Shown here in pieces: positions 79-57,912 of a stretch of 64,000 bases of DNA. The position numbers were made by a program, and so were the translations under genes. Within the stretch, counting starts at the first letter, position 1. Each line of letters begins with the position of its first letter. The stretch is from IMG/VR virus record IMGVR_UViG_3300045988_117710; one strand, 5' to 3'. The notes beneath the pieces were generated by a model. That model was not told the origin of the DNA, did no database searches, and was given only the letters and a program-made list of their open reading frames with translations. This DNA is from a virus.

Positions 79-1431
79 ATGATGACTATTGGTCAAAAGT
101 TAGAAGATCTTATTAAAGCTTGTCAGGATTATCAGGTTACTCCTATTCCTACAAAGACTAATAAGAAGGATCAGTTTTTATCACCATTTGATGTTCCTGG
201 TAAGACTGTTTCCAAAGATGATTGTGTTAAAGTTTTACAACAATATTTTATCAACAAGTATAAGTCTGAAGGTAAGGATACTTCTAGTGTAGAGTTTCTT
301 ATCAATAATGATTTTTCACCTATGCTTGCTGCTAAACTGTCTGATTGTAAGATGACTCAAGAGGATGTTTTCAACTTAGATGAGAATAATTATATAGCTC
401 AAACGAAGTTAGATGGTAATAGAATTCTTATTTATAAGAGTGCAAACTCTGATGAGTTACATTTCTATAGTAGAAACTTATCAGTTGTTGATTATCTTCC
501 TATTGATTATAAGGATAACATTTATACTAATGTAGATTTTAGTAAACTTAAAGGTATTTCATTTATGGTGGATTGTGAGTTAGTGGTTTCTCAAGTTCCT
601 GATAATGTTATTTTGGAATCTTATGGTTTACCTGTTGATACTACTCAACTTAATTTAACTACAGCTTTATTAAGTACTGAATCTGGTACTGAAGAGTTTC
701 AAAAGTTATATCCACTTAAGTTCTGGTTATTTGATGTTATTATGAAGGATGGTGTAAGTTATTTAGATGAACCTTTATATAAACGTCAAATTGTTGTTAA
801 TGAGATGAATGCTTTATTAGTTGAAGCTGGATTACTTATAGAGCAACCACTTAATAATAGAAAGCTTGGTTTATCTATTCGTGACTTTCATAAGAAGATG
901 TTAATGAATAATGAAGAGGGTTCTATTGTTAAGAGATTGGATGCAACTTATTGTACTAATGGTACTCGTTCTCATAAGGCATGGATTAAACTTAAGAGAA
1001 CTGCTACTGAGTCTTTAGTTGAACAAGGTCTTGGTGATACTATTGATGCATTTATTACTGGGTATGAGAATAAGAAGGATTCAAGCTACAATTCTTGGAG
1101 AGTTGGTTCTATTGAATTGAGTGTTTATTTAACTGATGATAATGATAACTATATTTGTGATGAGAATGGTTATCCTATTAGTAAGGTTATTGCTTATGTA
1201 GGTGGTCTTACTGATGAAGATGCGAAGAATCTATCAATACCGGATGTTAACAATCCTGGTATGTGTTGTTTAGATCCTATGTCATATGGTCGTGTTTATG
1301 AAGTTACTGGACAAGATATTAGTCCTAAATCCAATACTTTAATGCATGCTAAGATTATTAGAGAACGTTTCGATAAACAATCTTCTGATTGTAAGTTGAG
1401 AAAATCTTTTATCGAGAGTCAAGTTATGTAG
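79..1431 (+). CDS. ATP-dependent DNA ligase
   Basis: Nucleotidyltransferase motif I KLDGNR (KxDGxR), motif IV-like EGSIVKR and motif V-like WIKLKR. The size (~450 aa) is typical of phage ATP ligases. The track start at 55 is a TTG; ATG 79 lies 12 nt after an AGAGGA RBS. Confidence 0.8.
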   Translation: MMTIGQKLEDLIKACQDYQVTPIPTKTNKKDQFLSPFDVPGKTVSKDDCVKVLQQYFINKYKSEGKDTSSVEFLINNDFSPMLAAKLSDCKMTQEDVFNLDENNYIAQTKLDGNRILIYKSANSDELHFYSRNLSVVDYLPIDYKDNIYTNVDFSKLKGISFMVDCELVVSQVPDNVILESYGLPVDTTQLNLTTALLSTESGTEEFQKLYPLKFWLFDVIMKDGVSYLDEPLYKRQIVVNEMNALLVEAGLLIEQPLNNRKLGLSIRDFHKKMLMNNEEGSIVKRLDATYCTNGTRSHKAWIKLKRTATESLVEQGLGDTIDAFITGYENKKDSSYNSWRVGSIELSVYLTDDNDNYICDENGYPISKVIAYVGGLTDEDAKNLSIPDVNNPGMCCLDPMSYGRVYEVTGQDISPKSNTLMHAKIIRERFDKQSSDCKLRKSFIESQVM

Positions 1432-1457
1432 AGGATGAAAATCCTCTCTTTTCTTTC
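1431..1457 (+). terminator. Intrinsic terminator hairpin (agaggat-gaaa-atcctct) plus T-run, fused to the promoter motif
   Basis: Perfect 7-bp stem with a 4-nt loop followed by TCTTTTCTTT, read directly. Confidence 0.6.
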
Positions 1458-1464
1458 GTATAAG
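1456..1464 (+). promoter_or_regulatory. TCGTATAAg -10-type promoter motif upstream of the SbcC fragment
   Basis: Member of the recurring TTTCGTATAAT motif family found directly after terminator T-runs. Confidence 0.45.
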
Positions 1465-1665
1465 TATATAGGTGTTACAAACCTAGATATCGGTTGGTCC
1501 TATTAATACTAATACTAACAATCAAAACATTAATTTTAATAAGGATATTATTAAACAAGAGAAAGACAATATTTAGAGGGTACAGATTATCAAGAGAGTA
1601 AAATATAATTTAGATGGTAACGATTATTTAAACTTTAAGAAATTTTAATTAAGAGGTGATACAAT

Positions 1666-2724
1666 TTGAGAGTTAAAGTTAAAGATTTTAATTGTATTCG
1701 AGAAGCTGAGTTTCAGTTCTTACCTGGATTAACTGTATTACAAGGTGAATCCAATGGTGGGAAGAGTTCAGTGTTCAGAGCGATTGAGAATACAATATTT
1801 AATCAGTCTGGGACAGCAAATGTTCAGCATGGTAAGCAGTTTTACTTGGTAGGGATTGAGAATAATGGTCATAAGGTTGTATTCAAGAAGGGTAAAGCTG
1901 GTGGAGTGTATAAGGTTGATGATGTAGAGTATTCTAAAGTTGGAGTCGGACAGGTGGAACAAGTAGCAGACGCTCTTGGGATCCGAGAAACTGTGCTTGC
2001 GGGAGAGAAGATTCGATTGAACTTCTGGAGTCAGATGGGATATCCGTTCTTGCTTGATAGAAGTCCGGGGCAGTTATACAAGTTTATTGTAGACAGCAGT
2101 GAATCGGAGTCGCTTTCAAGCGTTCTGAAGGACATCGCTAAGGACATCAAGGACACCAATGCGAGTATCGTGGCGAACGATAGTAAGTTAGATCTTCTTC
2201 ATTCACAACTTACTACGACCGAGGAGAGACTTCGTGATGCGGAGAAGACTGAGGAAACTTGTAAAGCGATTATAGCGATGGATTCTGAATACAATTTCAT
2301 TAATTCATTGGATTCAGAGATTCAAGCGTTCAATCGTGTATCTACTAATCTTGGAGAGCTTCAAGCTTCTCTGATAACTATTCCGAACCTAGATACTTCA
2401 ACTTTAGATGTGGCTTATCAAGATTATCAAGTTGTTCCTGTGGTAGAGGAGTATCAGAAGAAGTCCCAAGAACTTCATTCTGCTGAGGAGTCTCTATCAC
2501 AAATCAATTCCAAGATTGAAATCATTCAGGATATAGATGATGTTGATATTAGTGTTCTTAATACCATTCAGTCTGCTATTAATGAATATAATTCAGTTAT
2601 GTATGAATTATCCAATGAACACTCTAGATTGGGTGAGTTGGATCTTATGATTGAGCAGTGCAGGGAAGAGTTGAAAGAATTCAAAGTTTGTCCTCTATGT
2701 GGAGGAGAGATTCATGAGGGTTAG
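1666..2724 (+). CDS. sbcC: SbcC/Rad50-like ATPase, N-terminal fragment (Walker A, coiled coil, zinc hook)
   Basis: N-terminal VLQGESNGGKSS P-loop typical of SMC/Rad50/SbcC, then a long coiled coil, ending CPLCGGEIHEG (CxxC zinc hook) followed at once by a stop. TTG start with an AAGAGGTGA RBS. Confidence 0.7.
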   Translation: MRVKVKDFNCIREAEFQFLPGLTVLQGESNGGKSSVFRAIENTIFNQSGTANVQHGKQFYLVGIENNGHKVVFKKGKAGGVYKVDDVEYSKVGVGQVEQVADALGIRETVLAGEKIRLNFWSQMGYPFLLDRSPGQLYKFIVDSSESESLSSVLKDIAKDIKDTNASIVANDSKLDLLHSQLTTTEERLRDAEKTEETCKAIIAMDSEYNFINSLDSEIQAFNRVSTNLGELQASLITIPNLDTSTLDVAYQDYQVVPVVEEYQKKSQELHSAEESLSQINSKIEIIQDIDDVDISVLNTIQSAINEYNSVMYELSNEHSRLGELDLMIEQCREELKEFKVCPLCGGEIHEG

Positions 2725-3031
2725 TACACATGGGAAGAAGAGAATGAGAGAACGAGTTCAATCTTCCCTAACTAATCGAAATGTTAATTCTCTGTTCAAG
2801 ACAGCTTTACATAAGGGTTATACTCCGAAAGCATTTATTGATGGTGACTTCAAGAAGTATTTGATGGCACATTCGAAGAAGAATTCAGTTAAGGTTTTCC
2901 AAGACCATATGTACTTATATAATGGTTCAAGAAAGATTTTGTACACAGTGTGGAAGGTTCCTAACCAATTTCTACCTGTGGAACAGTTTCTGAAGAGAAA
3001 CCAACCGAATCCTAATCAATTAAGTAAATAG
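2714..3031 (+). CDS. Small basic protein inserted within the split sbcC, DUF4258-like (RelE/ParE-like fold family) by recollection
   Basis: MRVSTHGKKRMRERV N-terminus resembles the HAxxRMxERGI start of DUF4258 proteins. Its RBS GGAGGAG lies inside the zinc-hook codons of the upstream fragment. No HNH or GIY-YIG motifs seen. Confidence 0.4.
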   Translation: MRVSTHGKKRMRERVQSSLTNRNVNSLFKTALHKGYTPKAFIDGDFKKYLMAHSKKNSVKVFQDHMYLYNGSRKILYTVWKVPNQFLPVEQFLKRNQPNPNQLSK

Positions 3032-3061
3032 TTTCGTAATTTCAAATGAGAGGTGATTTTA

Positions 3062-3310
3062 ATGAGTAATGATGAATTAGTTACTAGGTATAATAATATT
3101 AAGAGAAAGCAACAAGATTTCGAGAATCAGAAGATTCAAGTGGAGACTTCTATTAATATTAAGAAGACTGAGCTTGAAGCTGTGAAGACAAGATTACAAG
3201 AGTTAGGAGTTACTGATTTTGACAATCTAGATGCTTTTATTCAAGCGAAGAGAGAACAATTTGATAAGACTTTACAAGAGTTGGAGGCGAGGTTGAATGG
3301 TTCAGTATAG
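3062..3310 (+). CDS. sbcC: SbcC/Rad50-like middle coiled-coil fragment
   Basis: Heptad-rich K/E/Q sequence continuing the coiled coil; strong RBS GAGAGGTGA 6 nt upstream of ATG 3062. Confidence 0.55.
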   Translation: MSNDELVTRYNNIKRKQQDFENQKIQVETSINIKKTELEAVKTRLQELGVTDFDNLDAFIQAKREQFDKTLQELEARLNGSV

Positions 3311-3938
3311 TCAACTTAAGTCTGTTGCTGTTTCAAAGCTTTCAGAGATTAATGTGTTCAGAGAGCAGAGAAACAATTTCATCCTATCTATTGAGGATGT
3401 TACTAAGGATAATGATAGATTGAAGGAGCAAATCAATCTTCTTACTGAGTCTTTAGAAGTAGTTAAGGTTTGTATTAATAAGTTGTCTGAAGGACATATA
3501 TCTCATTTACAAGAGCTTGTTAATAGTATGCTTAATACTGTGTTCTATGATAAGAAGTATTCTATTGATATGCAACTTAATGATACAAAGAATGGTAAGG
3601 TTTTAGATTTATTCCTTATTGATTCTACTCTATCTGATGAGGATCCTGTTGTTACAGAGCTTTCTTCTAATGGTGGAGGTTTACAAACTGTTGTAGGGTT
3701 TGTACTTCAGATTTATTTCATTATTTATTTTAAGCAAGAGAGAATTCTATTCTTGGATGAAGCTTTGTCTGCTGTTTCTTCAGAGTATATTCCTACTCTA
3801 GTGGATTTTATGCGAGGGTTAGTAGACAAGTATCAATTTAAGTTTGTAGCAATATTCCATGATACTAGATTTTCTGAATATGCTGATACAATTTATCAAG
3901 TGTCTAATGGCACTGCCAAGTTGGTTACACAGGAGTGA
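3297..3938 (+). CDS. sbcC: SbcC/Rad50-like C-terminal ATPase fragment (signature, Walker B, H-loop)
   Basis: SSNGGGLQT (ABC signature-like), ILFLDEALSAVS (Walker B, D-loop) and AIFHDT (H-loop). Its start overlaps the end of the previous piece in another frame. Confidence 0.7.
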   Translation: MVQYSQLKSVAVSKLSEINVFREQRNNFILSIEDVTKDNDRLKEQINLLTESLEVVKVCINKLSEGHISHLQELVNSMLNTVFYDKKYSIDMQLNDTKNGKVLDLFLIDSTLSDEDPVVTELSSNGGGLQTVVGFVLQIYFIIYFKQERILFLDEALSAVSSEYIPTLVDFMRGLVDKYQFKFVAIFHDTRFSEYADTIYQVSNGTAKLVTQE

Positions 3939-3944
3939 TGATTC

Positions 3945-3982
3945 CAAACACCGAATTAGTGATAATTTGGTGTTTTTATTTC
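3945..3982 (+). terminator. Intrinsic terminator (caaacaccgaatt...aatttggtgttt plus T-run) fused to the promoter motif
   Basis: About 12-bp stem with one G-U pair, followed by TTTTTATTT. Confidence 0.6.
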
Positions 3983-3989
3983 GTATAAC
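3981..3989 (+). promoter_or_regulatory. TCGTATAAc promoter motif
   Basis: Recurring motif immediately after a terminator T-run. Confidence 0.45.
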
Positions 3990-4217
3990 TTATTAGAGTA
4001 TACTACTCTACGATGTCCCAAGTCCAAAAGATAATGACTCGTTGATTGGTTTGGAGTATACCAGTCAAGATAAAACTTGTTCAATCGGTAAGCAGCCAGT
4101 TTGGAGGTAAAGTCTTTGTAACACCTTTCCTCTGTGGAAATTGTTGCTGATGATGTCTAGAAACAAATACTCCATTCTAATTTGTTATTAGATTTTTTTC
4201 AAGAAGGAGGTTATTAT

Positions 4218-5483
4218 ATGGAATTTGAAAAAGATTTAAATATAGATCCATTTGCAAGTACTGATGCTGTTAGTGATAACTTAAGTGCTTTCGATGGAGA
4301 TGAAGCTGAAGATTCTACTGTGTTAGAAGGTTTCAACATTCCTGAAGAGAAAGAATTCCCACATATCAAATTAAATTCTAGAGATTTCTTAAATGCTTTA
4401 GGTACTTGTGGAACTGTTCTTGAGAAGATGAGCACAGATAGTATTTTCAAGACAGTAATGATTCAAGTTGACGGTAAGAATTGTAATTTCAAGGTTATTG
4501 GTCCTGTTTCTAAATTACATTATCATTGTGGTATTATGAATACTAATGATGATTTAATTCTAACTGATACTTTATTCATTAATCACGATTTACTTACTAA
4601 GGTTTGTAAGGTTCTTGGTTCTAGTATTTATATCATTAAGAAAGATGATGGTATTTACTTAAGACTTGTTGGTGGAGACTTAAAGGTTGAAACTGAAGAA
4701 CATAATGTAGAAAGATTTGAATTACCAGAAGGGGCATTAACTGAAATTCTTAATGTTGAAACTGGTAGATTTGGTGCAATGCTATCTAACTTTGAAAGTT
4801 TAGTTAATGCTGCAATCAAGTCATCTGATAAGAGAATATTCTTACACAACAATGGTGTGTATTTTAATGATTTATCTACTTGGACAAAAGCAGAGTTCGA
4901 GGGTATCAACAATGATTTGATATTAAGAGGTGTTGATATTAAGGTATTAAAGAAACTTATTGATACTAGTACAAGTCAAACTGTTGTATTTAATAAGGTA
5001 GATAATAAGTTCAATTATGTTCTTGTTAATACTACTAATTGTACATTTGCTTTTATAGCTGATTCTAATATCTTTGATACTAACTTCCTAGATGGTGCAA
5101 ATCTTGAGTCTTGTGCTGCTAATGGTGTAGATGTTGAAGCGAAGTTACTTAAGAATTATGCTACTTTAAGTACAGTGTTACCTAATGCATCTGAATATTT
5201 AACTTTATTAGTTTCTGATGAGAAATTCTTCAGTGTTGTAGAACAAAAGACTACTGGATTAAGTAAGTTTGCATTAGATATTACTTCTAACAATAAATCA
5301 TTAGATATGAAAACTCCTGCTAGAGTTAATTCTCGTAAATTAGATTTATTATTAGCTGCTCTTAATTGTACAGGATCTGTTAGAGTTTATATGAGTGAAG
5401 ATAATAACTTTGTTTATGTATGTAAAGTTCCTACAGATACTAAAGTCAAGAATGCTGTTTATAGTTTAATTATGAAAGCGTAG
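4218..5483 (+). CDS. Hypothetical protein; possible DnaN-like sliding clamp with an acidic N-terminal extension
   Basis: Strong RBS AAGGAGG. Length and segments such as NYATLSTVLPNASE loosely recall beta-clamp domain boundaries. Weak, recollection only. Confidence 0.25.
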   Translation: MEFEKDLNIDPFASTDAVSDNLSAFDGDEAEDSTVLEGFNIPEEKEFPHIKLNSRDFLNALGTCGTVLEKMSTDSIFKTVMIQVDGKNCNFKVIGPVSKLHYHCGIMNTNDDLILTDTLFINHDLLTKVCKVLGSSIYIIKKDDGIYLRLVGGDLKVETEEHNVERFELPEGALTEILNVETGRFGAMLSNFESLVNAAIKSSDKRIFLHNNGVYFNDLSTWTKAEFEGINNDLILRGVDIKVLKKLIDTSTSQTVVFNKVDNKFNYVLVNTTNCTFAFIADSNIFDTNFLDGANLESCAANGVDVEAKLLKNYATLSTVLPNASEYLTLLVSDEKFFSVVEQKTTGLSKFALDITSNNKSLDMKTPARVNSRKLDLLLAALNCTGSVRVYMSEDNNFVYVCKVPTDTKVKNAVYSLIMKA

Positions 5484-5491
5484 TGATATTT

Positions 5492-6028
5492 ATGGACATT
5501 GGTTATTATATTTTCAATATAGTTAAAAATAGTCCTTTATTACTTATTGGTGGTTACGTATCAGAGTTTAAGAAGATCTGTATGCAATATGACAATCAGT
5601 TTACTGTTTTCTATTTTCGTGAGAAAGCAGATATGGATGAGTTTATAGATTCTAACTCTGGTCGTAAATTCCCTAATGTTTTAGTTATTGAGTTAGGTAA
5701 GAATCTTATTTCTCATGTTGATGGGCTTCTTAAGTTCGTTGAGGATTATCCTGGTCCTTTAATTGTAACTAGTTCACAAGATATTAATAATTTGGTATTC
5801 TTATCTAGATTCAAACTAGAGTTTAGAAAGTCTAAAGAGGATATCAAGTTCTTATTACCAAGTCATAAGAATACTTTGAATGATGGTATTAGTGAGGAAA
5901 CTAAACTTTCTGATCCTATAATCTGGTATGCTTATTCCAAAGGTATGAAGACTTTTATCCCAATGTGTAATACATATTCAAGAGCAGAGAGTGAAGTTCT
6001 GAAGTGTATTGATATTATATATGGTTAG
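5492..6028 (+). CDS. Hypothetical protein
   Basis: ORF with phage-like codon usage; the start is ambiguous (GTG 5483 or ATG 5492). Confidence 0.4.
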   Translation: MDIGYYIFNIVKNSPLLLIGGYVSEFKKICMQYDNQFTVFYFREKADMDEFIDSNSGRKFPNVLVIELGKNLISHVDGLLKFVEDYPGPLIVTSSQDINNLVFLSRFKLEFRKSKEDIKFLLPSHKNTLNDGISEETKLSDPIIWYAYSKGMKTFIPMCNTYSRAESEVLKCIDIIYG

Positions 6029-6040
6029 GCAGGTGAATAT

Positions 6041-7201
6041 ATGAAGAAATTAAGAGTTTTAGAGTTTTTCAGTGGTATTGGTGCTACTCATGTTGCATTT
6101 GATATGTTGAGAGAACAATTAGATGTTGATTTTGAGTTCGTTGATGCTATTGAGATTGATCCTGTTCCTATGGCAATGTATAATTCCATGTTTGGTACTA
6201 ATCATCCTACTCAAGATGTTACTAGGTGGGATAAGTCGATTGAAGAGCTTGGTGGGGAGATAGATATTATTCAACATTCTAGTCCCTGTCAAGATTTTTC
6301 TAACCAAGGTCATGGAGCTGGTGCTGAGAAGGATTCTGGTACACGAAGTTCATTGCTTTGGGAGATGGTTCGTATTTGTGATAAGATTAGACCAAAGATT
6401 ATGATTTGGGAGAATGTTGAAGGACTTTTGAATCATAAGCATGCAGCTGTATTTGAGGGTTATAAAGAAGAGTTAAGACGTATGGGTTATTTATCATATG
6501 TAATTAAGATGAATGCTTCTGATTATGGTATTCCTCAAGCACGTCCTAGGGTGTTCACTGTTTCAGTTCGAAGAGATTTTAGTGATAAGTATTTCTATCA
6601 ACCTGATCCATTTTACAATAATATTTGTTTAAGAGATTTATTAGAGGATGAACCTAAGGATTTTAAATTCCATTGGTATGATTTAGGTGGGAAGCAGTTT
6701 CTAAAGGATAAAGAGGATAATTATTTTAAGAATGTTAAGTTAGAGAGTCAACTTTATTATAAGGGTATTAATCCAGAGTATAATATTTATCCTGGTATTT
6801 ATGTTCTAGCAGAGGTTGACCAAGCATTCAAGTCTACTTCTAGAATATTTAGTCCAGATGGTATTTCACCAACTCTTGATACTAAGTCTGAAGTTAAGGT
6901 TGGTCTTAAGGAAGATTTATATGAGGATAGAGCAATTCGATATATAACTCCTTTAGAAGCATGGAGAATTGATGGATTCCCTGATGAGTATTATTTTAAG
7001 GCAACACAAGCTTGTCATGCTGCTACGAAGTTGAAGAAAGCGGCAGGTAATTCTATTTCCACTGCTCAGATGTATCATTTATTGAAGGAGATTATAATTC
7101 ATTTGTTTGGTGAGGATTATTATAATAGAGATAGATTAGAAGATTCTATTTATTATCTTCCTTACTTTGAAGGTAAAGGTATTTACAAGGACAACGAATA
7201 G
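6041..7201 (+). CDS. DNA (cytosine-5)-methyltransferase
   Basis: Motif I FSGIGA, motif IV SSPCQDFS (PCQ), motif VI WENVEGLL (ENV), motif VIII QARPRVF and motif X GNSIS, in canonical order. Confidence 0.9.
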   Translation: MKKLRVLEFFSGIGATHVAFDMLREQLDVDFEFVDAIEIDPVPMAMYNSMFGTNHPTQDVTRWDKSIEELGGEIDIIQHSSPCQDFSNQGHGAGAEKDSGTRSSLLWEMVRICDKIRPKIMIWENVEGLLNHKHAAVFEGYKEELRRMGYLSYVIKMNASDYGIPQARPRVFTVSVRRDFSDKYFYQPDPFYNNICLRDLLEDEPKDFKFHWYDLGGKQFLKDKEDNYFKNVKLESQLYYKGINPEYNIYPGIYVLAEVDQAFKSTSRIFSPDGISPTLDTKSEVKVGLKEDLYEDRAIRYITPLEAWRIDGFPDEYYFKATQACHAATKLKKAAGNSISTAQMYHLLKEIIIHLFGEDYYNRDRLEDSIYYLPYFEGKGIYKDNE

Positions 7202-56943: not shown

Positions 56944-57912
56944 GTGTTAAAGCTTTATTTTGTAGGAGATTTACATTTACATGATGTAAGTCCTAGTTCG
57001 AGAATAGATGATTATTCTCAAGCAATTTTAGATAAGCTTTCTCAAGTATTTACTAAGGCGAAGGAAAGTAATGTTGATGCAATTATATTTGAAGGAGATA
57101 TTTTCCATAAGCCATCTGGTATTTCAGTTAGATACTTGAATAAGGTTATTGATGTGTTTAAGGAAGCACATTGTCCATGTTATTCTGTTATAGGAAATCA
57201 TGATGTTCAGTATGGTCGAATAGATGATATTGGTGGCACTTCTTTAGGAGTTCTATTTAAAGCTGGTTTACTGAAACCATTCTTTGCTGGAGCTTTCTCA
57301 ATTCCTTTTATGGATGGTAAGGTTTTAGTTGAAGGATATAACTATGGTGAGGATATTTCTCAAGCAAGTCCAAGTAGACAAGCAAATTTAACTATTTGTG
57401 TTGCTCATAGTTATGGTGAAGATGTTTCATTTGGTGCTGCAGATACACCAGAGTACTTTAAGTTTAATTCTATAGCTCCTGAAGTTCCATATAATGTTTA
57501 TGTTTTAGGACATGACCATTCATATCATGATACTATGGATTTGTTTGGTGGTCTTTCTAAACTTTATCGTTTAGGAGCTTTGTCTAGAGCAACTTCTAGT
57601 GTTACTGATACTAGTAGAGATGTTCAAGTTCTAGAGTTAGATATTAATGAGGATGGTTCTTATATTCCAATTCCTGTTCACATTGATATTAATCCTGCAG
57701 AAGATTGTTTCTCTGCTTTAGCTCTTGATAAGGATATGATGTCAAAGAGAGATAGAGAGTTGATTAATAAGTCTTTAGAGGAAGTTTTAGCAAATCTAGA
57801 TTTTTCAGTTAAGAGTTCTATTTATGATATTCTTGATGCTATGGATTTAGATGATAATGTCAAAGCAACTGTAGAACGATATTTGAATAATGCGTTCATT
57901 GTAAGGAAGTAG
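56944..57912 (+). CDS. sbcD: SbcD/Mre11-family nuclease (calcineurin-like phosphoesterase)
   Basis: Motif I VGDLHLHD, motif II EGDIFHK, motif III IGNHD, motif V-like GHDH; GTG start with a GAGGTGA RBS. Confidence 0.75.
   Translation: MLKLYFVGDLHLHDVSPSSRIDDYSQAILDKLSQVFTKAKESNVDAIIFEGDIFHKPSGISVRYLNKVIDVFKEAHCPCYSVIGNHDVQYGRIDDIGGTSLGVLFKAGLLKPFFAGAFSIPFMDGKVLVEGYNYGEDISQASPSRQANLTICVAHSYGEDVSFGAADTPEYFKFNSIAPEVPYNVYVLGHDHSYHDTMDLFGGLSKLYRLGALSRATSSVTDTSRDVQVLELDINEDGSYIPIPVHIDINPAEDCFSALALDKDMMSKRDRELINKSLEEVLANLDFSVKSSIYDILDAMDLDDNVKATVERYLNNAFIVRK

Follow-up and report, generated by a model that had tools for sequence, protein, structure and literature searches.

How does a phage come to carry a Rad50/SbcC-type gene in pieces, and what do the pieces make? 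The question is raised by IMG/VR virus record IMGVR_UViG_3300045988_117710, of which one stretch of 64,000 nucleotides (nt) was analyzed; this whole stretch is referred to as “the window”. Positions 1666–3938 of the window hold four co-oriented, coupled open reading frames (ORFs), which we call A, B, C and D. A, C and D resemble successive parts of Rad50/SbcC, and B, an ORF of 105 amino acids (aa), lies between A and C, next to the codons for the zinc hook. The initial annotation, made from the letters alone, offered three readings: a genes-in-pieces Rad50, a decaying gene, or a gene interrupted by a self-splicing insert. The first of these is the best supported, but the cause that it implied, namely that the 105-aa ORF made the split, is not. 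We estimate a probability of roughly 0.8 that the product of this locus is an ABC ATPase of Rad50/SbcC type whose natural form comprises three polypeptides, that the split is ancestral rather than a product of B, that B is a later passenger, and that the junction in which B sits is a landing site for mobile genes.

The four ORFs lie on the + strand, where the initial annotation placed them. Piece A (1666–2724, 352 aa) has a TTG start behind AAGAGGTGA and ends ...FKVCPLCGGEIHEG before its stop codon, its C-terminal residues reading ...EFKVCPLCGGEIHEG. ORF B (2714–3031, 105 aa) begins MRVSTHGKKRMRER..., and its ATG overlaps the last codons of A (cATGAgggTTAG). The Shine-Dalgarno sequence of B is GGAGGAG, at 2701–2707, and is built from the G-G-E codons that follow the hook of A; the initial annotation had described the hook codons as the ribosome binding site (RBS) of B. 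Piece C (3062–3310) starts with an ATG at 3062 and begins MSNDEL. Its Shine-Dalgarno sequence (GAGAGGTGAT), read from the sequence, spans 3047–3056 on the + strand and places GAGAGGTGA six bases 5' of the ATG, in agreement with the strong RBS noted there before. C is 82 aa long, not 83 aa as first given. Piece D (3297–3938, 213 aa) shares its first 14 nt with C. Frame 1 holds A, frame 2 holds B and C, and frame 0 holds D, so the SbcC frame does not simply “re-initiate” at 3062, as had been suggested. A separate start codon with a strong RBS is present for each piece. Terminator-like hairpins on the + strand flank the locus, one upstream of A after the DNA ligase gene (1430–1447) and one directly after the D stop codon (3946–3975), and no + strand terminator-like site is seen between them; hence, A, B, C and D probably form a single transcription unit.

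What do the pieces encode? A reads as the N-terminal ATPase lobe of Rad50/SbcC, followed by an ascending coiled coil of ~190 residues and then a zinc hook. The Walker A motif, GESNGGKS, occupies residues 27–34, the Q-loop is at Q123, and the hook, CPLC, is at residues 342–345; A stops 7 residues later. Seven residues within these motifs (G27, G32, K33, Q123, C342, P343 and C345) are invariant in 10 A homologs. A matches AAA_23 in Pfam (1.6e-7) and phrog_16465, “exonuclease”, in PHROG (5.6e-17), and its residues 146–351 align to positions 232–447 of the 878 positions of the NCBIfam Rad50 model PRK03918, i.e., up to the hook. For a profile of the ten A homologs, the best matches in the PDB are Rad50 heads (3qku, 2.5e-11), and the same profile matches the Pyrococcus furiosus Rad50 hook structures 1l8d/6zff at 2e-3. 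A single-sequence alignment of the hook sets ELKKAKGKCPVCGREL against ELKEFK-VCPLCGGEI, such that KCPVCGREL of P. furiosus aligns to VCPLCGGEI of A, and zinc binding is predicted. A DNA search at near-identity with 1500–4100 against phage records and a protein search with A against IMG/VR each gave no match. In most lineages, a Cys or His lies 4–9 residues past the CxxC; the idea that this is an extra zinc ligand special to the split family was dropped because the canonical P. furiosus hook reads CPVCGREL and the tails resemble the ordinary post-hook motif.

D begins with a long N-terminal helix, a coiled-coil stub, and continues as Rad50 ATPase lobe II. It carries the signature motif (SNGGGLQ, 124–130), Walker B (ILFLDE, 150–155), the D-loop (ALSAVS) and the H-loop (H188). 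Across 15 D homologs that share 32%–81% identity, G126 and G128 of NGGGLQ, LFLDE (151–155) and H188 are invariant, and residue 150 of Walker B is I or V. D matches phrog_15167, “ATPase”, end to end (4.9e-13), and residues 28–201 of the D profile align with 3qkr_B, the separate C-terminal chain of P. furiosus Rad50. An AlphaFold2 model of D (predicted local distance difference test score, pLDDT, 82.6) has one helix, residues 4–82, and then the strands and helices of an ABC lobe II. Proteins of this type are numerous. All 102 D homologs recovered by a word-indexed search are 186–229 aa long. In a database of 1.84 billion cluster representatives, the D profile matches 1390 representatives at E ≤ 1e-10, of which 119 reach E ≤ 1e-30. 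Of the 150 top-ranking matches, nearly all are stand-alone proteins of 200–235 aa (the longest is 398 aa), and no full-length Rad50 is found among those 150. One subclade (L032–L034 and P0193) has a D of ~346–350 aa with an additional ~145-aa N-terminal domain.

C consists of a helix, a G-V-T-D turn and a second helix. It would supply the hook-proximal part of the descending coiled coil. It aligns end to end with the equivalent piece (C') of its relative L007, with BC1854 of phage phBC6A51 and with gp7 of phage 0305phi8-36, and the turn glycine is invariant in these four C pieces; BLASTP gave no match linking C to BC1854 or gp7. In most IMG/VR loci, a hidden Markov model (HMM) built on 10 C pieces picks out a short ORF (~71–102 aa) between A and D, with E values from 1e-10 to 8e-3. 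The NCBIfam Rad50 model is colinear with the pieces, in that A extends up to position 447 and C gives a weak match (E 0.002) to positions 549–606 of 878. The helix-loop-helix of Mre11 binds the base of the Rad50 coil, and, by analogy, C could instead be an adaptor that clamps both coils. One locus, L039, may join two of the pieces: its 562-aa ORF (L039:1979–3667) is an A piece with CPLC at residues 459–462 that runs on for ~100 residues into C-like sequence (...QVRKHGFSDNDALKAYV...), and a separate D follows directly. The C HMM is not detected on the tail of this fused protein. L039 looks like a two-piece variant, and the similarity of its tail to C is suggestive. In L010 (2712–3014), a C ORF was called at 100 aa from a run of N with foreign residues inside; this is a scaffold-gap artefact and no real variant.

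Is the split peculiar to the window? The closest relative in IMG/VR, L007, is a 181-kb contig whose D is 58% identical. Its A' (363 aa) ends ...FDICPLCGSSIKC (i.e., ...ICPLCGSSIKC and a stop), its C' (83 aa) begins 10 nt after A', and its D' (229 aa) overlaps C'; there is no B. In L021–L023, D is 57% identical and A and C overlap by 7 nt, and B is absent from L021. In L026, D is 39% identical, A and C are separated by 19 nt, and there is again no B. Thus, the three-gene arrangement exists in L007, L021 and L026 without any inserted ORF, an outcome that the initial annotation had itself listed as speaking against its reading. Insert-free relatives with the same A|C|D split indicate that the split is older than B and was not made by B. 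Another 22 IMG/VR loci were scanned with HMMs of A, C and D. Whenever a locus includes A, this piece forms an ORF by itself that stops shortly after CP[LYTVFI]C, the exception being the A–C fusion of L039, and most of these loci have a C-like ORF of 71–102 aa and a separate D. In nearly all relatives examined, A ends 6–22 residues past CPxC.

The same breakpoints are found in cultivated Bacillus phages, whose A, C and D pieces are homologous to those of the window but only 21%–30% identical. In these phages, A ends 9–18 residues after CPxC, C is 77–92 aa, D is 211–236 aa, and SbcD lies one to two genes past D or is fused to A. For example, the prophage phBC6A51 has, in order, BC1852 (518 aa, ending ...VCPLCESPMSFDHSH, with a C-terminus that reads ...GGVCPLCESPMSFDHSH), BC1853, BC1854 (77 aa), BC1855 (211 aa), BC1856 and then SbcD. 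In vB_BboS-125, the order is gp32 (ending ...GGICPLCEQTHKGGGC), gp33, gp34 (78 aa) and gp35 (211 aa). In 0305phi8-36, gp8 is an SbcD–A fusion (...KCPTCNQEVSEH..., with the C-terminus ...KCPTCNQEVSEHAVNEMLEHIA), followed by gp7 (92 aa), gp6 and gp5 (236 aa). Yoshida et al. (2011) described gp8 as lacking one P-loop NTPase segment and did not make the link to gp5 (PMC3175470). The missing segment is explained by gp5, two genes downstream, which encodes it separately.

In some other relatives, the pieces are dispersed and behave as genes in their own right. A high-GC environmental clade, comprising L020 (LR745208.1, 449500–460000) and L042–L051, has A, then ~3.4–4.7 kb, then C, a gene of ~377 aa, and D. 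In Microbacterium phage Magritte (L001, L060), gene 2, which lies at the left end of the genome, is the D homolog, and the A-like gene 155 (350 aa, annotated “hypothetical protein”) is at least 39 kb from it. D relatives also occur on contigs of 116–132 kb that were binned as Erysipelotrichaceae/Bacilli metagenome-assembled genomes (MAGs) from ruminant gut (L052–L055); these contigs probably represent phages that were swept into MAG bins, which points tentatively to hosts among the Bacillota. Taken across these comparisons, the three-way split at these positions appears to be ancestral to a large phage family.

Could the split be an error of assembly, leaving what is really one continuous ORF broken by indels? 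An identical D protein is present on at least 23 contigs, all six of the places inspected (6/6, from six different samples) show the split, and it is kept in relatives at 38%–89% identity. An assembly artefact is therefore ruled out. All four ORFs are under purifying selection. By the Nei-Gojobori method, with the window compared to L013, L016 or L014, the ratio of nonsynonymous to synonymous divergence (dN/dS) is 0.09–0.22 for A, 0.09–0.14 for B, 0.24–0.38 for C and 0.13–0.15 for D.

How does this arrangement compare with known systems? Canonical SbcCD and Mre11–Rad50 complexes (E. coli SbcC, T4 gp46/gp47, P. furiosus Rad50) have the same motifs in the same order, i.e., Walker A, Q-loop, coil, CPxCG hook, coil, signature, Walker B, D-loop and H-loop, and they have a metallophosphoesterase partner, as does the window. 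The SbcD/Mre11-like metallophosphoesterase gene of the window, whose product is the presumed nuclease partner (56944–57912, + strand, 322 aa; phrog_100, 8.6e-18; TIGR00619 sbcd, 2e-8) lies ~53 kb from the A–B–C–D locus, as first annotated. In relatives, SbcD is fused to A (0305phi8-36 gp8), follows D at a distance of one to four genes (phBC6A51, L026) or lies between A and C (LR745208). Whereas canonical Rad50/SbcC is one chain of 600–1300 aa, that of the window is spread over three genes and is cut after the hook and within the descending coil; its coil is also short (~190 residues) and its SbcD is 53 kb away. Both lobes and the antiparallel coil are not found on one polypeptide here, but on three ORFs in three frames, and the relatives examined are alike except for the A–C fusion of L039. 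The nearest structural parallel to A and D comes from crystallography constructs (3qkr A/B, 1ii8, 1f2t/1us8), in which N-terminal and C-terminal Rad50 segments are separate chains that form one head, and which match A and D. These constructs were engineered and lack most of the coil and the hook, whereas the split in the window is natural, keeps the hook and includes a third piece. Hopfner et al. (2000) reportedly obtained an active Rad50 head from N and C halves that had been produced separately. No account of a Rad50 or SbcC in split form was found in searches of the literature, although absence there does not prove that such a split is unpublished.

These comparisons suggest how the three proteins might work together. 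The helices of C and of the D N-terminus would pack antiparallel against the long helix of A. This packing would join lobe I, in A, and lobe II, in D, into a normal Rad50 head, and the hook at the C-terminus of A would still dimerize through zinc. The resulting A/C/D complex would work with the SbcD/Mre11 nuclease on DNA ends and hairpins during phage replication and recombination.

Several observations weigh against a three-polypeptide Rad50. First, A matches the PADLOC profiles of Lamassu LmuB (6.7e-14), over the first half of LmuB, which means that a Rad50/SMC-like assignment made by sequence alone is generic. Second, the coil lengths are unmatched, with ~190 helical residues in A against ~80 in C plus 50–80 in D, and the A coil of phBC6A51 is ~350 residues. 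Third, the coiled-coil role of C is built on position, length, a G-[VIY]-[TD] turn and weak profile scores, and coiled-coil matches are non-specific. When the L039 tail is compared with C by hhalign, the expected motif is aligned but the score is non-significant (E 0.045). Fourth, CxxC is missing from the A-like protein of Magritte, which means that not every member of the wider family has a hook. Fifth, B is under purifying selection and is coupled to A, which leaves room for a role of B in the complex.

What, then, is B? B matches phrog_16724, of unknown function, at 1.2e-9, and a B-family profile search finds 85 proteins of ~90–115 aa without a Pfam domain, in which H6, R10, R14, G35 and T78 are invariant. 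No Pfam family matches B, no nuclease-domain match is found for it in Pfam or PHROG, and the DUF4258 HMM (PF14076) matches neither B at E ≤ 1 nor 51 family members at E ≤ 0.01. The AlphaFold2 model of B is confident (pLDDT 90.2) and predicts a fold of the RelE/ParE/colicin-D (BECR)-like class. In BFVD, the model matches a domain of R9ZW62, annotated as an HNH homing endonuclease (E 6e-5, TM 0.72), and, distantly, a DUF4258 protein. The description of B as “DUF4258-like” is consequently apt for its predicted fold class but not for family membership. The fold of RelE, ParE, colicin D and CdiA-CT (BECR) toxins and of DUF4258 is also predicted in R9ZW62; compared with those toxins and DUF4258, B has no family HMM match and no antitoxin-like partner is evident.

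The distribution of B is that of a visitor. It is found at this locus only in the immediate clade of the window, where the copies in the window, L013 and L008–L012 are 96%–97% identical. The copy in L016 and L017 is 61% identical, and its junction with A shows the same overlap (cATGAaagTTAG). Wherever B is present, the DNA at its start also encodes the final residues of A (HEG or HES). Elsewhere, B homologs are free-standing genes in unrelated contexts, such as ORF093 of Enterococcus phage EF24C and a gene of Brevundimonas phage Gurke. B-family genes also lie directly after thymidine kinase in two unrelated phages, Bacillus phage G (gp136, after gp135) and L056, and directly before a helicase in L058. 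These slots, beside conserved genes of nucleotide and DNA metabolism, are typical of free-standing mobile genes. Because its homologs are free-standing in unrelated contexts, B appears to be a later, lineage-specific passenger gene that is translationally coupled to A.

Alternatively, B may have been co-opted in the lineage of the window as a fourth subunit or regulator of the Rad50 complex, for example as a binder of the hook or coil end or as a nucleic-acid-binding or RNase module. The translational coupling to A fits this idea, as do the low dN/dS of B (0.09–0.14), the fact that B has kept its position while A diverged to 68% identity (L016/L017), and the invariant H6, R10 and R14, which suggest an active or binding site. 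However, homologs of B elsewhere never adjoin SbcC-like genes, relatives with the same three-piece Rad50 have no B or have unrelated ORFs in its place, and a selfish or auxiliary gene should be under purifying selection just as much. We consider co-option unlikely.

It is less likely still that A, C and D form some other SMC-like system, such as a Lamassu LmuB-like ATPase of defense or counter-defense, rather than a Mre11–Rad50 repair complex. In addition to the LmuB match of A, D matches “mad3” of PADLOC (7e-5), and SbcD is not adjacent in the genome of the window. Nevertheless, D does not match the LmuB profiles, the best PDB and NCBIfam matches are to Rad50, hook included, and no LmuA-type effector is seen nearby. 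The neighbors are instead a DNA ligase and a DNA methylase, and SbcD is fused to A in 0305phi8-36, near the pieces in phBC6A51 and L026, and between them in LR745208.

Could one polypeptide be restored after all, by a group I or group II intron carrying B, by split inteins, or by programmed frameshifting or bypassing? Introns, inteins and homing endonuclease genes commonly interrupt phage genes, and fractured genes with a homing endonuclease gene between split-intein halves are known (PMC2677866). Moreover, A and C overlap or abut in some relatives, and L039 carries A and a C-like tail in one ORF. Each route nonetheless meets an obstacle. There is no Rfam match in 1400–4300 on either strand at E ≤ 1, and the A–C spacings of L007 and L021 (10 nt and −7 nt) are too short for an intron. 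A, B, C and D have no Hint/intein match in Pfam, and there is no room for an intein, since the hook is followed by 7 residues of A and the first residues of C are MSNDEL. A programmed frameshift from A to C is rejected because the frame offsets vary among relatives and each piece has its own RBS and ATG. Finally, other clades have the pieces parted by unrelated genes or by at least 39 kb. A self-splicing insert, as the initial annotation had allowed, is thus rejected, the pieces lying in different frames with their own start signals, and restoration of one chain by any of these means is very improbable.

We give equally little credence to a recent disruption, in which the 105-aa ORF, or a mobile element carrying it, split an intact sbcC in the phage of the window. 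The precedent is the nrdA gene of Aeromonas phage Aeh1, which was split by the homing endonuclease gene mobE (PMC3045599). There, as here, an essential enzyme of DNA metabolism has to be put together from polypeptides encoded separately, with a slot for mobile genes between them, and the inserted DNA encodes part of the terminus of one piece; in the present case, the start of B coincides with the codons for the HEG/HES tail of A. B does lie 5–9 codons past the hook, its 5' end supplies the last codons of A, and this junction is taken up by HNH endonuclease genes in vB_BboS-125 and in near-identical strains. There are also differences. The Aeh1 split is recent and close relatives are intact, whereas the split considered here is family-wide, with no intact relative among the 102 close homologs or the best 150 representatives, and the inserted gene of Aeh1 is a homing endonuclease, whereas B has no nuclease-domain match. 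L007, L021, L026 and 0305phi8-36 have the split but not the insert, the split extends through a family of over 1000 clusters, and the distant Bacillus phages share its breakpoints. The break between C and D is wholly unexplained by B. The nrdA analogy drawn by the initial annotation therefore stands insofar as the junction repeatedly hosts HNH genes in relatives, but not for B as the splitter of a gene that is intact in relatives. Least probable of all is a decaying gene, with the pieces as fragments of a pseudogenized, non-functional sbcC: the locus is fragmented and its nuclease partner is 53 kb away, but dN/dS is 0.09–0.38 in every piece at divergences of up to dS ~2, the catalytic motifs are all invariant, each piece has a strong RBS and a start codon, gut phages and Bacillus phages have the same piece boundaries, and there are 1390 clusters of stand-alone D-type proteins.

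The three-polypeptide Rad50 with B as a passenger leaves the junction itself to be accounted for. The content of the A|C junction differs between genomes. It is empty in L007, L021, L026 and 0305phi8-36, the last of which has its extra gene, gp6, at the C|D junction instead. It holds B alone in the window and L013. In L008–L012, B is joined by an HNH/NUMOD4 ORF and a ParB-like ORF, and in L016 and L017 a B homolog is accompanied by a 113-aa ORF. L014 has unrelated ORFs of 92 aa and 125 aa, L024 has five small ORFs, phBC6A51 has BC1853, and vB_BboS-125 has gp33, an HNH/AP2 ORF (phrog_99, 4.5e-18). The cargo of the Bacillus phages (BC1853, the HNH/AP2 ORF, or gp6 between C and D) thus differs from that of the window. 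The L008–L012 cassette is 1535 bp long, lies between B and C, and replaces window positions 3043–3059. It encodes the HNH/NUMOD4 protein (198 aa; phrog_59, 1.2e-31) and the ParB-like protein (265 aa; phrog_12305, 1.2e-26) and has a promoter-like site of its own, TTGACT-17-TATTAT. The D protein of these strains is identical to that of the window, and presence or absence of the cassette among strains with identical D suggests an active mobile element. From this pattern, the A|C junction appears to be a recurrent landing site for mobile genes. By analogy with the behavior of homing endonucleases described for T4-type phages (PMC2988022), the invariant hook codons, with a gene boundary directly after them, would suit selfish genes, free-standing homing endonucleases among them, both as a target and as a place where insertion does no harm. 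Insertion of a mobile gene at the hook junction may even have been the origin of the ancestral split.

The composition of the locus differs along its length. A GC-rich patch in A (1800–2400) has a GC content of 44% compared to ~31% in its flanks. The GC content at third codon positions within 1666–3031 is 0.36–0.38 for A and B, compared to 0.18–0.20 for the neighboring ligase gene and 433-aa gene. When the window is compared with L016, synonymous divergence reaches ~2 in A and B but ~0.6–0.7 in C and D. Together, these contrasts suggest a mosaic region in which recombination broke and rejoined the DNA close to the B|C junction.

The flanking genes give the locus its setting. An ATP-dependent DNA ligase gene (55–1431; phrog_114, 3e-30) lies upstream and a cytosine DNA methyltransferase gene (6041–7201; phrog_116, 3e-74) lies downstream, which places the split Rad50 in a replication/DNA-metabolism module of a ~182 kb phage seen in human-gut metagenomes (e.g., Hadza). 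Between D and the methyltransferase gene are ORFs of 433 aa (4182–5483) and 181 aa (5483–6028), for which PHROG, Pfam and NCBIfam gave no matches. L008, L013, L014 and L024 have ORFs of 414–421 aa and 171–178 aa after D, followed by a DNA methylase gene, so these are conserved neighbors.

What are the implications of a Rad50 in three pieces? First, the gene in the window is intact in its split form, is correctly assembled and contains no self-splicing element; it is an ordinary member of a split family with a passenger gene. Second, annotation can be corrected. The pieces are currently labeled “exonuclease”, “exonuclease SbcC”, “chromosome segregation ATPase”, “chromosome partition protein” or “hypothetical”, and these scattered labels refer to pieces of one Rad50. 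Third, models of Rad50 and SMC proteins rely on coiled coils that pass signals between the hook and the ATPase head. A natural Rad50 that ends at the hook, with its returning coil supplied in trans by two small proteins, is a system in which to ask which covalent connections are needed, and its small, separately expressible subunits lend themselves to structural work. Fourth, the junction shows how a conserved coding motif beside an intergenic gap can serve as a long-lived landing pad for mobile genes. On balance, we favor the broader view that a widespread phage family, represented in human and ruminant gut metagenomes and by Bacillus and Microbacterium phages, runs Mre11–Rad50 with a three-polypeptide Rad50 that is cut just after the hook and inside the descending coil. 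If this is true, covalent continuity of the coiled coil at its apex would be dispensable for Rad50 function, and the hook-coding junction would be a conserved homing site for HNH endonucleases and selfish genes, and maybe the place where the split arose.

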